Shown: positions 34,513 to 44,791, counted from the first letter of the stretch. The stretch is 64,000 bases of DNA from an uncultured Candidatus Saccharibacteria bacterium (GCA_964364285.1 CAYIKZ010000001.1:17237-81236), one strand, 5' to 3'. The notes: generated by a model from the letters alone, not told the origin. Numbers and translations: made by a program.

Positions 34513-36147
34513 ATGGAAATACCTCATTACAAAAAAATAGTTCTTCTGGTGTTGGATGGTTTTGGTGTTGCTTCTAAATCAAGAGGAAATGCCATTTCTC
34601 AAGCAAACCCAGCGCACTTAAACAACCTACTCGCAAATTATCCAGCAATAACCTTACAGGCATCAGGACCTTTGGTTGGTTTGCCTTGGGGTGAAATGGG
34701 GAACTCAGAGGTTGGACATTTAAATATCGGAGCAGGAAGAATCGTTGCTCAAGACTTGCCTCGTATTACAGCAAGCATTCAAAGTGGAGAGTTTTTTAAA
34801 AATCCAGTGTTCTCAAAAGCATGCGAGCATGTTAAGAAAAACAACTCAAAATTGCATCTTCTTGGAATGGTCAGCCCAGGTGGAGTTCATAGTTATGACG
34901 AACACCTTTATGCGCTGCTTGGTTTAGCCGCAGAGCAGGGTATTCAAAACACATATATTCACATGATTACAGATGGAAGAGACACAGAACAAAAAGTTGC
35001 TCTAGCAAGTCTTGAAAAGCTACATAACAAAGTTGCTCAGATTGGTGTTGGAAAAATTGCGACAATTTGTGGAAGATTCTATGCAATGGACAGAGGCGGG
35101 CATTGGCAGCAAACAGAAATGGCATATCAAGCAATGGTAAATGGTGTGGGAGAGAAATCAATCAGTCCAATGGAAGCAGTAGCTACAAATTATGTTAAAG
35201 GTATATTTGATGAAATGATTAAACCAACCATCATCACAGAAGGTGATAGACCTGTTGCGAAAATTGAAAATAATGATGCTGTAATATTCTTTAACTTTAG
35301 ACAAGACCGTGCAATGCAGTTAACAGTTGCTTTTGTTGCTCCTGAAAAAATGGAGATACCACAAAAACATCAACCTTTAGAAAACCTTTGCTTTGTAACA
35401 ATGACCTCATATATGCCGGATCTGAAAGCAGATGTTGCTTATGGACCAATTGAGATTGACAATGACATTGCAAGCTTAATTTCTAAAGCAGGATTAAAAC
35501 AATTCCATGCTGCAGAGAGCGAAAAGTTTGCACACGTCACATCGTTTTTCAATGGTGGAAAAATGGATCCTCTTCCAGGAGAAGAGAGAAGTATAATTTC
35601 AAGCCCTGATAACACAAGCAACTATTCAGATAGACCAGAAATGTCTGTTGCAAAACTTACTGACACCTTAGTAGATCGTATAAATCACGGGGATGATAGT
35701 TTTTATGTCGTGAACTTTGCTAATGCGGATATGGTAGGACACACTGGAAACTTAAACTCAGCAATCGACGCTATTAAAGCAATTGATGAAGAGATTGGTA
35801 AAATTGCGGCCGCAATTTTACCACTGCAAGGAGCTTTGATAATCACAGCAGATCATGGCAATGCTGAATTGATGATAAATAACAACACAGGGGAGATAAA
35901 TAAGGACCACACAACATCCCCAGTCCCCTTTGTTTTGATTGCTAATGAATTTAAAAGATCAAAACCAGAGCAGATAGACTACGACACGCTCGCTGGTCTT
36001 ATGCCAGAAGGAGCGCTTTCAGATATTGCACCAACGATTCTTGAACTCTTTGGAATACCAAAACCAGAACAGATGACAGGAATTAGCTTGATTCCTGTTT
36101 TAGAAGAAGAGATTTTGAAAAAAGTTAGTAACATGTTAGGGAGTTAA
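34513..36147 (+). CDS. gpmI: 2,3-bisphosphoglycerate-independent phosphoglycerate mutase
   Basis: iPGM motifs (LVLDGFG, SEVGHLNIGAGR, ITADHGN). Confidence 0.92.
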   Translation: MEIPHYKKIVLLVLDGFGVASKSRGNAISQANPAHLNNLLANYPAITLQASGPLVGLPWGEMGNSEVGHLNIGAGRIVAQDLPRITASIQSGEFFKNPVFSKACEHVKKNNSKLHLLGMVSPGGVHSYDEHLYALLGLAAEQGIQNTYIHMITDGRDTEQKVALASLEKLHNKVAQIGVGKIATICGRFYAMDRGGHWQQTEMAYQAMVNGVGEKSISPMEAVATNYVKGIFDEMIKPTIITEGDRPVAKIENNDAVIFFNFRQDRAMQLTVAFVAPEKMEIPQKHQPLENLCFVTMTSYMPDLKADVAYGPIEIDNDIASLISKAGLKQFHAAESEKFAHVTSFFNGGKMDPLPGEERSIISSPDNTSNYSDRPEMSVAKLTDTLVDRINHGDDSFYVVNFANADMVGHTGNLNSAIDAIKAIDEEIGKIAAAILPLQGALIITADHGNAELMINNNTGEINKDHTTSPVPFVLIANEFKRSKPEQIDYDTLAGLMPEGALSDIAPTILELFGIPKPEQMTGISLIPVLEEEILKKVSNMLGS

Positions 36148-36255
36148 GCTGGGCTCATGGTTTTAGGTATAGATTTATGTCTATGCTTGGAACTCTTAGC
36201 TCACAGAGAGCAGAGTATTTCGGTTTAGACTCGGCAACCTTGAGGAGGATTTACG

Positions 36256-36846
36256 ATGACACTCGCGGTTTCGTCTGATGTTCCGTCTTCGCACGGGTCA
36301 GTAAAGGTTTGCCATCTTGGACTGGTTCGGCATGAGGCATTGGAGCCAAGGCTTGAAGGACTCACACCGCTTCATGCCGCCGTTCTGGCTGATGCCTGTG
36401 AGGAATACCGAGACGCTTTCGACTTGCTGACGACTCGGTTCCTCGCTGAGCGCATTATCCCAGCGGCGATCGAAGACTGCAAGTTCAAGATCGTTGCTGG
36501 GTCGTCCAATCTGCAGTATGCGGATTTTCCCATCAACGAGCAGTCACTCGACGACGTGGGTCTAGCTCCAAACGGTATTCTCCGTTCGGTTCATCAGATT
36601 CTCGAGGAGTATCCGCTTGAAGCCTTTGCCTCTCCATTGACAGCGTTGCGCTACGCTGCGAGGTACCCAGAAGTTTACATGGTCGCTCCAATCAACGTGC
36701 TGTTCGCGGCCATGGGCAAGCTATGGGGCATGACCTTTCTGAATTGGCAGGGTTTGCACAAGATGATTGTGCGCCAGTTCTTCCTCGAAGCCCGGTTCGC
36801 TACTGGAGAGCGTTTCCTTGTTCTCCGACGTGGTCGTTTGCGCTGA
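36256..36846 (+). CDS. hypothetical protein (196 aa) encoded in GC-rich island C
   Basis: ATG preceded by GAGGAGGA with a 6-nt spacer. About 58% GC. Followed by hairpin terminator CCGCGTTT...AAACGCGG. No recognisable family. Confidence 0.55.
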   Translation: MTLAVSSDVPSSHGSVKVCHLGLVRHEALEPRLEGLTPLHAAVLADACEEYRDAFDLLTTRFLAERIIPAAIEDCKFKIVAGSSNLQYADFPINEQSLDDVGLAPNGILRSVHQILEEYPLEAFASPLTALRYAARYPEVYMVAPINVLFAAMGKLWGMTFLNWQGLHKMIVRQFFLEARFATGERFLVLRRGRLR

Positions 36847-36940
36847 TGTCATCAAGATTCTGGGCCTTGTGCCCGAAGCTGGAGCCGCGTTTTGTTTGTC
36901 GAAACGCGGTTCTGCCTTTTCTAAAAACAATCTTTTGTTA

Positions 36941-38626: not shown

Positions 38627-39066
38627 ACATCACAGAAGAACCAACCCATTTAGTTATATACACAGATGGTGGAGCCAGAGGTAACCCGGGTCCTGCAGGT
38701 ATTGGCGCTGTTTTTTACTTGGAAGATGAGGCAGGCAAAAGATTAGAGCTTGAAATTCTTAAAGAATACATTGGAGAACAAACTAACAACTTTGCTGAAT
38801 ACACTGCTTTGATAAAGGCGTTACAGCGAGCATCGGAAATTGGTAAGAAAGTTGTCCTCTGCTATTTAGACAGCGAACTCGTTGTTAAACAGTTAAATGG
38901 TTTGTACAAGGTTAGAGAAGAGTCTTTAAAACCATTGGTTTCAGAGATTTTTAAATTGACGCATAAGTTTACGAACGTTAGTTTTACGCACGTTCATAGA
39001 GAGAAAAACGTTTTAGCAGACAAGTTAGTTAATCAAGCTATTGACGAAGCAGTCGGAAAAGTATAA
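38623..39066 (+). CDS. rnhA: ribonuclease HI
   Basis: IYTDGGARGNPGPAGIGAV and DEDD catalytic pattern. Confidence 0.88.
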   Translation: MNITEEPTHLVIYTDGGARGNPGPAGIGAVFYLEDEAGKRLELEILKEYIGEQTNNFAEYTALIKALQRASEIGKKVVLCYLDSELVVKQLNGLYKVREESLKPLVSEIFKLTHKFTNVSFTHVHREKNVLADKLVNQAIDEAVGKV

Positions 39067-39192
39067 TATTATTCCATTATGATTTCTAATCAATTACAAG
39101 CAGTAAATAACGGAATGCCAAAGTTTTGGTATAACTTTACATACTCCAGGGTTGTTTCGCTGCGGTAATTTTCTAATTCCTTTTTAAAAGAT

Positions 39193-39216
39193 TATCCCAG
39201 CGAGCCAACGCTGGGA
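39193..39216 (+). terminator. terminator/attenuator hairpin upstream of the island D gene
   Basis: ATCCCAGCG-AGCCAA-CGCTGGGAT plus T-run (TTTTTGTTTTT). Confidence 0.5.
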
Positions 39217-39277
39217 TTTTTGTTTTTGGTTCGGCGCACTTGGGACGCAATCTCAAGACCCAATTGGAGGATTGACA

Positions 39278-39682
39278 ATGCTTTCACGTAGCGAAGAAGG
39301 GCAGCTTGGTCGTTTCTGGGGCGTGGTGTTCACCCACATCGATGAGCTTGGGGTCATGTATCGTAACCGCAGGGGCAAGGATCGTCGGCACTACAGTGAT
39401 TTTGACGTATACGAGAGCGTAGAGTTTCCTTGCGGTTGCAAGCCGCGGTCTGGTCAGAGCAGGCGCTTCCGTCTTTACGAAGACGGTGCGCTGGTCCATC
39501 ACGGATGCTCGGTGGTTTTCGTAGGTCATGACAAGGAGGGGAAGCTCAAGCAGTCGATGCTTCAGAGGGCGATCTGGACCAAGAGGTCAATCGTTTTACA
39601 GCGCGTAACAAAGCCTAGCAAGCCATCACCGCGTGTTCCGCTCTACGGACCTTACGGAAGTCCGTACTTCGTGCGTCGTTGA
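39278..39682 (+). CDS. hypothetical protein (134 aa) encoded in GC-rich island D
   Basis: GGAGG 7 nt upstream of the ATG. About 57% GC. Possible Cys/His cluster (CGC...HHGC). Confidence 0.5.
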   Translation: MLSRSEEGQLGRFWGVVFTHIDELGVMYRNRRGKDRRHYSDFDVYESVEFPCGCKPRSGQSRRFRLYEDGALVHHGCSVVFVGHDKEGKLKQSMLQRAIWTKRSIVLQRVTKPSKPSPRVPLYGPYGSPYFVRR

Positions 39683-39700
39683 AGCACAGAACAAACAACA

Positions 39701-39740
39701 ATGGTCTTAAGTCTCCCTTAGTCGGGAACTTAAGACCTTG
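39701..39740. terminator. bidirectional terminator between island D and the convergent PEGA-domain gene
   Basis: 10-bp stem GGTCTTAAGT/ACTTAAGACC flanked by A/T-rich runs. Confidence 0.55.
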
Positions 39741-39744
39741 TTTG

Positions 39745-41082
39745 TTATCTAACCTTTAATAAACTAACTGTCTCGTTGTTTAACAAGAAAATTGTTTTTG
39801 CGTCAGAATCAATGTAGAATTTAGCTTCTTTGTTTAATTCTGCAAAAGTATAATTGTTTTGATAGTCCCTGGTGTCTAATTCAATGGCTTGTAAGTGGTT
39901 GTCATTTTTGAAAAATACCCAACCAACTTGGCTGTTTCCTGAAATGTTTGATATTTCTTTAAGTGATCTTGTAATTAGTTTTGTTTCTCTGCTAGCCATG
40001 TTGTATCTGTCTATCTCATTTCCAGTGTTAAAGAAAACATCTTCATTGTTTTCAATCTGAACTTCTTCAACGTGTTCAACGATTTTTTCAAGCTCGTCAT
40101 TTAAAACATACAACGTCTTGTTTCCTAAAACAAAGAGTTGGTTGTTTTCCGTTAGATATATTTGTGCATCAACAAACGGAGGAATATTTTCAAGCAAAAT
40201 TGTTTCAGTGTAGTTTGGCATGCTTGCATGAGCCAATGATCTTCTGATACCCAGAAGAGATTCTGCGAGTTTGATATAATATATTCCAGAAGAGTTTACT
40301 TCAAATGCCAGCACGTTATCCACTACAACCTCTTTTTCGTTTTTGTTCCAATCAAGAATATATATTGAACCTTCTAGAAGCTGATACAGTTTGTTGTCTG
40401 GTGAGAACTTAAAGGTATTTTCTGATGCTTGGAATGATGTTTTTGATGAAAAAGCAGCTTGTTTTGTGGTTAATTCAGTAATATCTGTTAGCGTATTGTT
40501 TCTAGTATCTAAAACAAAGTTGTTAACCCCACTGTTTATTAAAAAGAAGTTTTCATCAGGACTTGAAAGGATTTTTCCTGCTTTGATGTTCTCTTTAAAA
40601 TTAACAGAGGTTTGTTTTTCAGGACTACTGATATCTGCAAAACTTATTTTATCTTGTTGAAGGTAGGCAATTCTTTTTTCTCCAGCAAAGAAATCTAAAG
40701 CATTTTCAGAGAGCGTTTGCTTTTCTGCGTTTGAGTAGAAAAGAAAAAGGTTGTCCGTACTTTCAAAGTTCCAAGTAACAAACTGTGATCTGACAGTTAA
40801 ACGTTTGTTCCAGTCAAAGTACCCTTGTTTTTTGATGCTTAGTTCATAATTACCTGGTTCTAAGAATCTAATGTTTTGGTTTGTTGTGCCGTGTGTTGAA
40901 CCATTAATTGTTATGCCAGCGTTCTTTGGCTCTGTCTTGATGCCTAAGATTCCGGTTTTAACAAAACGGCCATTTTTAAAGTCGTACTTTTTGCCACTGA
41001 CAAAAAGTACAATAAAAGGGGTTAAGATTATGAAAGCGAGGATTCCGCTAGCAATTAAAGAGTACCTTGGACGTGATTTCAT
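39745..41082 (-). CDS. membrane-anchored PEGA-domain protein
   Basis: N-terminal TM. PEGA-like segment GITINGSTHGTTNQNIRFLEPGNYELSIKKQGYFDWNKRLTV. Long N/S/T-rich extracytoplasmic region. Confidence 0.55.
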   Translation of the reverse strand: MKSRPRYSLIASGILAFIILTPFIVLFVSGKKYDFKNGRFVKTGILGIKTEPKNAGITINGSTHGTTNQNIRFLEPGNYELSIKKQGYFDWNKRLTVRSQFVTWNFESTDNLFLFYSNAEKQTLSENALDFFAGEKRIAYLQQDKISFADISSPEKQTSVNFKENIKAGKILSSPDENFFLINSGVNNFVLDTRNNTLTDITELTTKQAAFSSKTSFQASENTFKFSPDNKLYQLLEGSIYILDWNKNEKEVVVDNVLAFEVNSSGIYYIKLAESLLGIRRSLAHASMPNYTETILLENIPPFVDAQIYLTENNQLFVLGNKTLYVLNDELEKIVEHVEEVQIENNEDVFFNTGNEIDRYNMASRETKLITRSLKEISNISGNSQVGWVFFKNDNHLQAIELDTRDYQNNYTFAELNKEAKFYIDSDAKTIFLLNNETVSLLKVR

Positions 41083-41133
41083 AACAGTATTTTACTATGA
41101 TATAATAGCGAAGTCTAATCATTATATTATCCT

Positions 41134-43396: not shown

Positions 43397-43478
43397 CGAA
43401 AAAAGAAGAGGTTTCCTAGTGTTGAAAAAATCGTTTTTTAATGATATGGTATATATAGTGATTTAACGAATAAACAAT

Positions 43479-43799
43479 ATGAATTTTCCTTTATTCCAAA
43501 AAAGAATAGATCAAGATGTTGTTCTCGCTCTGAGATGGAAACTACCTGAATCTTTGGAAGTAGATTTGCAAGGAGCTGAAGAGGGTGGTTTTGTTGTTTC
43601 TGTTAAAACTTTGCCAGGATGTTTTACACAAGCAGAAAATGAAAAAGAACTATTTGAAATGGTTAACAATGCAGTTCTAACATATTTACAGATACCAAAA
43701 GAGTACCAGCCGTACATGCCTTCTTTTTTCCCAAAGAACGAGGAATTAAGAAAAGCTATGCAAGCGCAAAAAGGTGTTTTGACTCTTGAAAGGGCGTAG
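43479..43799 (+). CDS. HicB-like antitoxin-domain protein
   Basis: FVVSVKTLPGCFTQAENEKELFEMVNNAVLTYLQ matches the HicB/UPF0150 N-terminal domain. Confidence 0.55.
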   Translation: MNFPLFQKRIDQDVVLALRWKLPESLEVDLQGAEEGGFVVSVKTLPGCFTQAENEKELFEMVNNAVLTYLQIPKEYQPYMPSFFPKNEELRKAMQAQKGVLTLERA

Positions 43800-43801
43800 C
43801 G

Positions 43802-44035
43802 ATGGGGAGGTTCTATTTCTCAATTAAAACCTCTAAATTAATCCGAGCTTTAAAGAAGCTCGGATTTACGATTGAGCATGGTAGTAAACATGATCTTGCG
43901 TATTTAAAGAATGGACCTAAAACTACTATTCCAAGATCCAATACCTTGAAGAAAGGAACTTCTGAGAGTATTTGTGAGTTTGTAGTAAAAGAAGCGGGTA
44001 TTTCAGAGGATAAACTTTTGGGTCTGCTGAGATAA
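43802..44035 (+). CDS. HicA-like mRNA interferase toxin
   Basis: LIRALKKLGFTIEHGSKHDLAYLKNGPKTTIPRSNTLKKGT matches the HicA/YcfA pattern (G.H..........t.vP.H..l..gt). Starts 3 nt after the hicB-like stop. Confidence 0.55.
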   Translation: MGRFYFSIKTSKLIRALKKLGFTIEHGSKHDLAYLKNGPKTTIPRSNTLKKGTSESICEFVVKEAGISEDKLLGLLR

Positions 44036-44044
44036 TATACAAAC

Positions 44045-44791
44045 GTGGTATACTCTAAGTATATGTGGAGCGTTAAAGGATACGAAAATCAAAAGCTTTT
44101 TTTAGACAATGCGTTTGTAAACAACAAGCTTGCGCATGCCTATCTTTTTACTGGTTCTGACAGAGAAACAAAAAAACAACTCGCTATTGAATTCGCAACA
44201 ATGATCCTAGGAGTTTCAGAGGAAGAGAAAGAACGTATAAACCCTGACCTCATAGTTATAGATCAAAGCAAAATGAAGATTGAGGAGATGAGAGCTTTAA
44301 TCTCTGAGCTTTCATTAAAACCTTTTAGATATCAAAAAAAGGTAGCCATAATTCAAAACTTTGAGGATGTAACAGATGAAGCAGCAAGCAGTATTTTAAA
44401 GACTCTCGAAGAGCCAAACAATAGTTCGCTAATTATACTTCTTTCAAGAAATCAGAAGTCGCTATTACCAACAATTGTTTCTAGATGTCAAAGTATATAT
44501 TTTAATATTCCAAAGCAGAAGATAGTAAACGAAAACGCAGAATCCTTGAAAGAAATATTTAAACTCCCGGTTGCTCAGAGAATTCTGAGCATAAAAGGAT
44601 ACGCTGAAAAAGAAACAGAAGAATTACAATCTTTGTTTGAGGATTGGATTAGTGTAGAACGAGAGAGTCTTCTTTCCGGAGACGCTGGAAAATACTTAAA
44701 CCTTCAGGTTTTGCTTGATTCTTTGGTTGGTTTAAAACAAAATTTAAACAAAAAATTAATATTAGAACGTTTGTTTTTAACTTTAAAATAA
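44045..44791 (+). CDS. holB: DNA polymerase III delta-prime subunit-like AAA+ protein
   Basis: AHAYLFTGSD (Walker-A-like delta-prime signature) and SRC motif. Confidence 0.6.
   Translation: MVYSKYMWSVKGYENQKLFLDNAFVNNKLAHAYLFTGSDRETKKQLAIEFATMILGVSEEEKERINPDLIVIDQSKMKIEEMRALISELSLKPFRYQKKVAIIQNFEDVTDEAASSILKTLEEPNNSSLIILLSRNQKSLLPTIVSRCQSIYFNIPKQKIVNENAESLKEIFKLPVAQRILSIKGYAEKETEELQSLFEDWISVERESLLSGDAGKYLNLQVLLDSLVGLKQNLNKKLILERLFLTLK

Follow-up and report, generated by a model that had tools for sequence, protein, structure and literature searches.

A GC-rich orphan gene of a Doudnabacteria-like CPR lineage preceded by a putative attenuator-type leader

Is a short GC-rich segment in an otherwise GC-poor stretch of a CPR genome a recent acquisition, or a resident gene with its own means of control? 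In the stretch of 64,000 nt analysed here (hereafter the window; GC about 38%), island D, from about 39226 to 39743, has a GC content of 54-56% and carries on the plus strand, at 39278..39682, an ORF of 134 aa (stop codon 39680-39682) with 55% GC as compared to 38% for the window. An earlier note on this DNA had considered the ORF a gene of foreign composition, preceded by a hairpin in an arrangement resembling a transcription attenuator and encoding a putative metal-binding protein. With slightly better than even confidence, we consider island D to be a regulatory unit that is resident in a Doudnabacteria-like CPR lineage, inherited vertically and provided with an attenuator-type leader.

The coding nature of the ORF is evident from its pattern of change. 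The dN/dS ratio is 0.17 versus the orthologous locus L001 and 0.15 versus the 97% strain L004 (about 0.16, purifying selection), the alignment gaps of 15, 3 and 6 nt are all multiples of three and substitutions fall mostly at third codon positions; such a dN/dS ratio, together with the invariant putative ligands described below, implies that the ORF is expressed and under selection. The first search recovered a copy at 99% (Hainich groundwater, same population) and, in an assembly of Candidatus Doudnabacteria, a homologue at 55%, and a HMMER scan of 1.84 billion representatives plus two profile searches delineated a family of about ten proteins of 113-140 aa, all from Patescibacteria. Profile scans of genomes and metagenomes gave only the 97%-identical Hainich strain, and the diverged loci were obtained by exact-protein look-ups.

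In nine distinct loci the homologue occupies the same slot between rnhA and a PEGA-domain gene, in the same orientation. The gene order GAPDH-PGK-iPGM-recJ-rnhA-ORF-PEGA(-)-murA-mreB is shared by L001, L006, L007 and L008, the contigs of which are long enough for context, and is consistent with the partial contigs L009, L011, L012 and L013, in which rnhA-like and PEGA-like fragments flank the ORF. The nine loci span MurA identities of 67-97%, and the ORF product is consistently the more diverged protein, with 58% identity (MurA 97%) between the window and L001, 41% (MurA 82%) between L006 and L008 and 0.23-0.37 (MurA 0.67-0.72) in deep pairs. As the ORF and its neighbours diverge concordantly, vertical descent with a raised amino-acid substitution rate fits these data; dN of the ORF is about 4-70 times that of the adjoining genes, and its dS exceeds that of the neighbours as well. 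At the nucleotide level, window and L001 are 92% identical over the 175 nt after rnhA, 93.5% over the 3' spacer, 59% over the ORF, 83-92% over the flanking genes and 98% over the PEGA-murA spacer. Given that further spacers are well conserved too, a high identity of the leader is not remarkable in itself; the features common to all nine leaders, described below, are more specific.

The unusual composition of the ORF is itself a constant of the locus. Its GC content is 50-60% in all nine orthologous loci, a GC3 of 0.59-0.70 and strongly atypical codon usage recur in every lineage, and in the five loci with codon positions tabulated its GC3 is 0.61-0.70 versus 0.24-0.52 in the neighbours (0.61 in the window ORF); the codon-usage index of the window ORF lies 10 SD below that of 30 long genes, and AGA, the favourite Arg codon of the genome, is not used for any of its 17 Arg residues. 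A structured mRNA as the cause of the GC content was discarded, as the fold z-scores are inconsistent, from +0.65 in the window to -3.7 in L008. Comparison of islands A-E by blastn-short and tblastx found nothing related to island D. As a separate observation, islands C and E share a motif, which is the only real element common among islands A-E.

Two readings of the compositional signal compete with residence. Recent horizontal acquisition, as suggested by the composition, would account for the GC content of 55% versus 38%, the GC3 of 0.61 versus 0.26-0.34 and a codon index that falls short of the genome mean by 10 SD; the elevated dS and the fact that the adjoining island C truly is an insertion/deletion difference between close relatives also speak in its favour. 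It is contradicted by the identical slot and orientation in nine loci across the full range of MurA divergence and by a divergence of the ORF that matches its neighbours, while homologues are confined to the CPR lineage among the 5.8 billion and 1.84 billion proteins searched. Searches found no phage or plasmid matches to the ORF, and no flanking repeats, tRNA genes or mobility genes were found around island D. With a shared syntenic slot in all relatives, divergence concordant with the neighbours and a dN/dS of about 0.16, the foreign label does not hold and a recent acquisition is very improbable; an ancient transfer into the ancestor of the clade may have taken place, which would leave the persistence of the composition unaccounted for. 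GC-rich intergenic blocks within AT-rich genomes are frequently structured RNAs, and a structured non-coding RNA with a fortuitous ORF could be invoked since some orthologues fold better than shuffled sequences (L008, z = -3.7; L006, z = -3.2). The window copy with z = +0.65 does not, the Rfam scans are without a match (gathering threshold over the whole window, only a tRNA elsewhere; E-value mode over 38950-39850, sub-threshold noise only), and the low dN/dS of 0.16, third-position changes, in-frame indels, invariant residues and a Shine-Dalgarno sequence in all loci are features of a protein-coding gene, which leaves this reading with hardly any probability at all.

The protein encoded by the ORF is, as far as sequence comparison can tell, a member of a new small, fast-evolving and lineage-restricted CCHC protein family without detectable relatives. 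Among 11 sequences of 24-57% identity, F13, D41, C52, C54, R65, H74, G76 and C77 are invariant and G33, P51, G53, G70 and Y126 nearly so. The pI is 9.4-10.1 across members, with 10.1 for the window protein. An AlphaFold2 model built on the 11-sequence alignment (pLDDT 78, pTM 0.67) predicts a small sheet between an N-terminal and a second helix, followed by a basic tail that is disordered, whereby a beta-hairpin of residues 63-74 bears H74 and C77 beside the loop with C52 and C54. Pfam searches gave no family at E values up to 10 for ten of the 11 members and one weak match of a single member to the unrelated SoFic-like_C (E = 0.15); NCBIfam, PADLOC (defence-system models) and PDB sequence searches with the protein had no match, and no structural match to the predicted fold was found in PDB or BFVD.

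The suggestion of metal binding, derived by the earlier note from the motif C52-G-C54 ... H74-H75-G-C77 of the window protein, is borne out by the invariance of C52, C54, H74 and C77 at such low overall identity; these residues behave as metal ligands, and zinc binding is a supported prediction. Comparison with zinc-binding profiles, to which the same note had pointed, matched no curated zinc-finger profile or fold. The protein resembles CCHC/treble-clef-type small zinc modules in having four Cys/His ligands (a CxC knuckle plus HxxC) arranged around a predicted beta-hairpin in a basic protein, but the spacing CxC-x19-HxxC fits no Pfam zinc-finger profile. A likeness to the PARP-type CxxC…HxxC and SWIM CxC…CxH patterns is presumed here from the motif patterns only. 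From the ligand pattern and the charge and composition, the product is most likely a zinc-stabilised nucleic-acid- or ribosome-binding factor. It may instead be a growth-arresting toxin, a distant relative of ParE/RelE kept nearly silent by the attenuator and by rare codons, to which we assign a small chance.

How the gene could be transcribed is indicated by the region immediately upstream. A promoter scan calls a -35 box TTGACG at 39041..39046 on the plus strand, within the last codons of rnhA (…A-I-D-E…), and, at a distance of 17 nt, a -10 box TAATAT at 39064..39069 overlapping the rnhA stop codon TAA, with TATAAT at 39062-67 as an alternative. The pattern TTGAC[AGC]-17-TA[AG][AGT]AT is found in nine out of nine loci. 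In seven of them the -35 box consists of the Ile-Asp codons of rnhA and the -10 box holds the rnhA stop codon; in L006 and L013 a separate TTGACA-17-TAATAT has been rebuilt downstream of the rnhA stop. This sigma-70-type promoter at the rnhA stop is the predicted promoter of the leader. The earlier note had instead placed an extended -10 at TGGTATAAC (39127-39135); these nucleotides are conserved codons (TGG-TAT-AAC, W-Y-N) of a short upstream ORF and are absent from other clades, and the candidate was rejected, with the conserved promoter located 60-90 nt further upstream.

This upstream ORF (uORF), which the earlier note had missed, extends over 39079..39168 on the plus strand with 29 codons plus TAA (MISNQLQAVNNGMPKFWYNFTYSRVVSLR), and each of the nine loci has an open ATG-initiated frame of 26-29 codons in the corresponding position. 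Between the end of the -10 box and the uORF ATG lie 6 nt in seven of the nine loci and 9 nt in the other two, the window and L001; with this geometry, transcription would start at the AUG or 2-3 nt ahead of it, so that the uORF appears to be effectively leaderless; a Shine-Dalgarno sequence before it was not found. An indel of one codon keeps the frame (L006 versus L013), stop codons are exchanged between TAA and TAG (L007 versus L011; L008 versus L012), and synonymous changes occur, among others between L006 and L013. The peptide is conserved within subclades, with little conservation of its N-terminal half. Directly 5' of the segment that is discussed below as an anti-terminator arm lies an aromatic patch of the form KFWYxFT, WYFT or KFT; the window clade has the cluster FWYxFTY and L007 and L011 have WYFT, while the leader peptides of L006, L008, L012 and L013 possess merely two to four scattered F/Y. 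No single amino acid is uniformly enriched across the leader peptides of the clades, and a poly-Cys tract is absent (no Cys in the window peptide, 0-2 in the others). In the 3' part of the uORF, peptide and RNA constraint are inseparable.

Downstream of the uORF, at 39194..39227 on the plus strand, follows an intrinsic terminator with a perfect 9-bp stem and a 6-nt loop, ATCCCAGCG-AGCCAA-CGCTGGGAT (39194-39217), and the U-run TTTTGTTTTT (39218-39227), with a hairpin energy of -15.3 kcal/mol. The number of terminator-like sites in the region is not above that of shuffles (3 versus 1.3 +/- 1.1 expected); the leader hairpin can nevertheless be regarded as real because hairpin and U-run are kept in nine out of nine orthologous loci with compensatory changes, such as CAGCG/CGCTG to CGACG/CGTCG in L008. 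Between terminator and ORF, aligned sequences of the window clade only share a small 5'-UTR hairpin (CUUGGG…CUCAAG, 39239..39257, plus strand) with compensated variants in L001 (CUUGGG/CCCAAG) and L009 (CUUAGGG/CCCUAAG), followed by the Shine-Dalgarno sequence GGAGG at 39266..39270 (plus strand), 7 nt before the main ATG and present as GGAGG or GGGGG in all loci. Hairpin, U-run, GGAGG and the ATG at 39278, like the other sequence features listed in the earlier note, are confirmed at the positions given there. Minimum-free-energy folds revealed no consistent case of Shine-Dalgarno occlusion across loci. In the 24-50 nt between U-run and Shine-Dalgarno sequence, no second promoter fits in any locus; this lack of promoter room makes the main ORF dependent on the leader.

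The other end of the unit is formed by an unstranded, bidirectional intrinsic terminator at 39690..39746, shared with the convergent PEGA-domain gene (stop codon 39745-47). Its hairpin GGTCTTAAGT/ACTTAAGACC at 39703-39739, with 10 bp, an inner 4-bp extension and A-rich and T-rich flanks, has a folding energy of -28.2 kcal/mol (z = -5.8) and corresponds to the 10-bp-stem bidirectional terminator of the earlier note; as the PEGA stop adjoins it, the hairpin is placed for action both ways. Hairpins flanked by A/T tracts are present at the equivalent site in L001, L006 and L008, and in L007 the hairpin is long and lacks a clear T run.

A competitor of the leader terminator was found on folding the leader, which lends substance to the attenuator resemblance: a hairpin with an alternative competing structure lies between promoter and ORF, and the uORF supplies a possible mechanism. 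In the fold of 39136-39228, segment A, the 3' part of the uORF at 39145..39164 (plus strand), is complementary to the entire terminator including its loop and pairs with its 5' arm, loop and 3' arm in a long hairpin of 28 bp (39145-39215; -32.7 kcal/mol, z = -5.66), which makes it a predicted anti-terminator arm. In eight of nine loci, no other part of the entire fetched locus (up to 13 kb) is as good a duplex partner for the terminator as segment A. Counted with a gap-free centre-registered script, since MAFFT shifted the register of segment A/terminator constructs, 82% of cells in seven distinct sequences are canonical pairs in register versus 29-45% after a shift of 1-3 nt; pairing is common to all seven at 12 of the 20 positions, with many double-sided changes between clades. 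Pair 8:13, opposite the terminator loop, occurs as U-A, U-G, C-G and G-C across clades, and such covariation of loop positions with an upstream segment argues that the pairing matters. Part of the covariation between segment A and terminator is automatic because the terminator is a palindrome, and the covariation statistics are thin because they derive from about nine loci in four subclades only. Where the 3' half of segment A meets the terminator 5' arm, a stretch of seven contiguous pairs is canonical in every sequence; between the 5' half and the terminator 3' arm, all seven sequences carry the mismatch 6:15, which weakens the closing helix of the long hairpin relative to the short terminator.

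In models in which a ribosome footprint masks the leader codon by codon, segment A keeps the terminator 5' arm as long as no ribosome is present or the P-site has not yet reached codon 12-19; at that codon the fold flips from the long hairpin to the terminator in seven of nine loci, insensitive to the footprint size assumed, and from the switch codon onward the modelled probability of the short terminator is about 0.95. Up to the stop codon this modelled state is retained in L012 and the window clade; at the final one to three positions L007, L011 and L006 revert to the long hairpin. For L008 and L013 the models give the short terminator as the thermodynamically dominant fold throughout. A clean state, in which the 5' arm is sequestered while the 3' arm stays free, arises at one or two codon positions in L007, L011 and L006 only, and at equilibrium never in the window clade. 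The long hairpin ends 1 nt before the U-run since the terminator 3' arm pairs with the 5' half of segment A; abutting the U-run, it could terminate too, which would leave no read-through state. We argue that the mismatch 6:15, together with a closing helix of 4-5 bp, would make the long form the poorer terminator.

From these elements a switch can be proposed as follows. The promoter would fire a transcript beginning at, or 2-3 nt before, the AUG of a leaderless 29-codon uORF, with the terminator 26 nt past the uORF stop, the Shine-Dalgarno sequence and the 134-aa ORF about 40 nt further and the bidirectional terminator closing the unit. With segment A unmasked, either for want of uORF translation or because the ribosome stays upstream of about codon 18, it would capture the emerging terminator 5' arm into the long, mismatch-containing hairpin; a ribosome on the last 11 codons or on the stop codon would mask segment A and let the 9-bp terminator form. 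Efficient uORF translation would consequently lead to termination and an OFF state of the gene, and slowed, stalled or absent translation to read-through and an ON state, with the K-F-W-Y-x-F-T cluster just upstream of segment A as the likeliest stall site. This OFF/ON logic, including which fold allows read-through, and the translation of the uORF are the most likely reading of the folding models, and the leader arrangement most likely ties expression of the 134-aa gene to ribosome activity.

The same elements can be read differently. With a constitutive leader terminator, promoter, uORF and terminator could form an autonomous gene for a peptide of 26-29 aa and/or a stable small RNA of about 150 nt; the long hairpin might then serve RNA stability, processing or shut-off of peptide translation, and the 134-aa ORF be expressed solely through basal read-through. 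The U-run directly adjoins either of the competing hairpins, the terminator 3' arm has a conserved partner in the 5' half of segment A that a pure anti-terminator does not require, and the peptide is maintained within subclades, with synonymous substitutions between L006 and L013; all of this fits an autonomous unit. A precedent, as outlined for Sinorhizobium, is the attenuator-derived small RNA rnTrpL, which acts in trans as does the leader peptide peTrpL (PMC6614838, PMC7298713). On the other hand, the main ORF, with no other promoter, depends on the leader, and purifying selection on a conserved gene presupposes that it can be expressed; the conserved mismatch 6:15 weakens the closing helix of the long hairpin relative to the short terminator, and the N-terminal half of the peptide is ill conserved. 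We consider an autonomous unit possible yet unlikely for each of its parts, be it the independent peptide or RNA gene, the alternative role of the long hairpin or the expression of the ORF by basal read-through.

There is a slim chance that the hairpin is the mere terminator of recJ-rnhA, with uORF and pairing incidental and the island ORF silent or spuriously transcribed, a case that the earlier note itself had raised against its proposal. The hairpin lies 128 nt past the rnhA stop with no terminator between, and intergenic regions of the lineage are generally conserved, as the PEGA-murA spacer of window and L001 illustrates. An incidental uORF and a silent ORF are at odds with a promoter of fixed uORF spacing in nine out of nine loci that was rebuilt in L006 and L013, with an upstream frame open in all loci, with segment A ranking first as partner of the terminator in eight of nine and with a dN/dS of 0.16 and invariant ligands in the ORF. 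One half of that objection stands, as the hairpin can end recJ-rnhA transcripts too, which can be compatible with an attenuator as well as with an autonomous unit; the other half, an untranscribed island gene, is unlikely because of the dedicated conserved promoter.

The ribosome-dependent switch proposed here shares with trpL, pheL and hisL of enterobacteria and with antibiotic-responsive uORF attenuators detected by Term-seq the order of promoter, short leader ORF and terminator, and, in our models, a leader-ORF segment that can pair with the terminator 5' arm so that the ribosome position selects the fold. In contrast to trpL-type attenuators, only three segments interact and a '1:2' pause hairpin is missing, as a consequence of which absent translation would give the non-terminator fold and not super-attenuation. 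Furthermore, the alternative fold also pairs with the terminator 3' arm and abuts the U-run, the leader ORF has neither a run of one regulatory codon nor a Shine-Dalgarno sequence and is seemingly leaderless, and the regulated gene encodes an orphan, predicted zinc protein instead of a biosynthetic or resistance function. In mycobacteria, leaderless short ORFs have been described as attenuators, among them the polycysteine 'Cys ribulon', the elements of which sense Cys via poly-Cys and unmask a downstream ribosome-binding site, hence control translation (10.1101/834739). They have in common with the leader proposed for island D a short ORF at the very 5' end of the transcript as sensor for downstream genes; unlike them, island D is without a Cys tract, the structure competing in it is an intrinsic terminator, and its Shine-Dalgarno sequence is not evidently sequestered. 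On these grounds the element is proposed, with odds that we judge a little above even, to be a new variant of leader-peptide attenuation controlling the new CCHC family.

A strong compositional island signal can therefore last at a vertically inherited locus, and as the anomaly persists there, GC and codon anomalies alone are unreliable for calling horizontal transfer in these genomes. A more speculative view, to which we attach a low probability, is that the GC-rich, codon-deoptimised composition of this gene, which the unrelated orphan islands A, C and E of the genome share, is actively maintained and not a relic of transfer. If true, this CPR lineage would hold small lineage-specific genes in a separate 'codon dialect', either through selection for rare-codon, translation-state-dependent expression, here coupled to a ribosome-sensing leaderless uORF, or through recurrent allele exchange or biased gene conversion across ultra-conserved flanks, and composition would be the badge of a regulatory or evolutionary gene class, not of foreign origin. 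To our knowledge, almost nothing is known about gene regulation in the mostly uncultivated CPR/Patescibacteria. The combination of a conserved promoter, a predicted leaderless uORF and a terminator provides a concrete, testable cis-regulatory element in this group and suggests that classical ribosome-mediated attenuation may work in reduced CPR genomes.

Four GC-rich single-ORF islands of the window, A (2330-2950), C (36114-36932), D (39226-39743, carrying the zinc-type ORF downstream of rnhA) and E (60670-61515), are mutually unrelated and of 50-55% GC, and their aberrant codon-usage index is nearly equal at 0.37-0.43, as compared with 0.70 +/- 0.03 for 30 long genes. No match to Pfam or PADLOC was obtained for any of the four. 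The ORF of island C (54% GC) is an orphan of 196 aa. For island A, alternative candidate coding ORFs are located at 2379-2864 on the forward and 2415-2759 on the reverse strand.

Island C, situated between the genes for iPGM and RecJ, is found in the relatives of at least 97% identity, L003 and L004, and is missing from the corresponding loci L001, L006, L007 and L008, where the gap between the two genes is only 20-66 nt. This distribution argues that island C is a recent gain or loss, in contrast to the anciently syntenic island D. Another variable segment of approximately 640 bp (43407-44046), located between mreB and the gene for the DNA polymerase III delta' subunit, consists of a small ORF and a gene with a HicA toxin domain; shared with L003 but missing from L001 and L004, it is, judged by this occurrence, best described as a strain-variable toxin-antitoxin insertion.

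In the window's lineage, conservation is generally higher in intergenic regions than at synonymous sites. The PEGA gene and murA are separated by a divergent spacer of 51 nt (41083-41133) that is 98% identical to that of L001, with 83-88% identity for the coding sequences on either side. A second small hairpin is present at 39239-39257, between the island D terminator and the Shine-Dalgarno sequence; it is seen in the window's subclade only, and its equivalents show a compensated change, CUUGGG/CCCAAG in L001 and CUUAGGG/CCCUAAG in L009.

The orphan islands C and E have in common the exact 5' boundary motif ACTCTTAGCTCAC-N5/6-GAGCAGAGTAT, at 36192-36218 and 60674-60701 respectively. The motif occurs twice with none expected from shuffled sequences and is capable of folding into a small hairpin; GGAGGA and the ATG of the respective ORF (36256-36846 and 60739-61389) follow 40-65 nt downstream. 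A strong terminator hairpin closes each island at its 3' end (36880-36914 in C and 61414-61447 in E). Upstream of island C, a 23-codon ORF starting with ATG, MVLGIDLCLCLELLAHREQSISV (36157-36228), was read from the sequence, beginning 9 nt past the iPGM stop codon; its likeness to the upstream ORF of island D is superficial. As the frame in which this ORF reads the motif differs, again by reading of the sequence, from the corresponding frame in island E, the motif is probably one at the level of RNA rather than of a peptide. The motif may mark a cassette-like element or a leader common to both islands.
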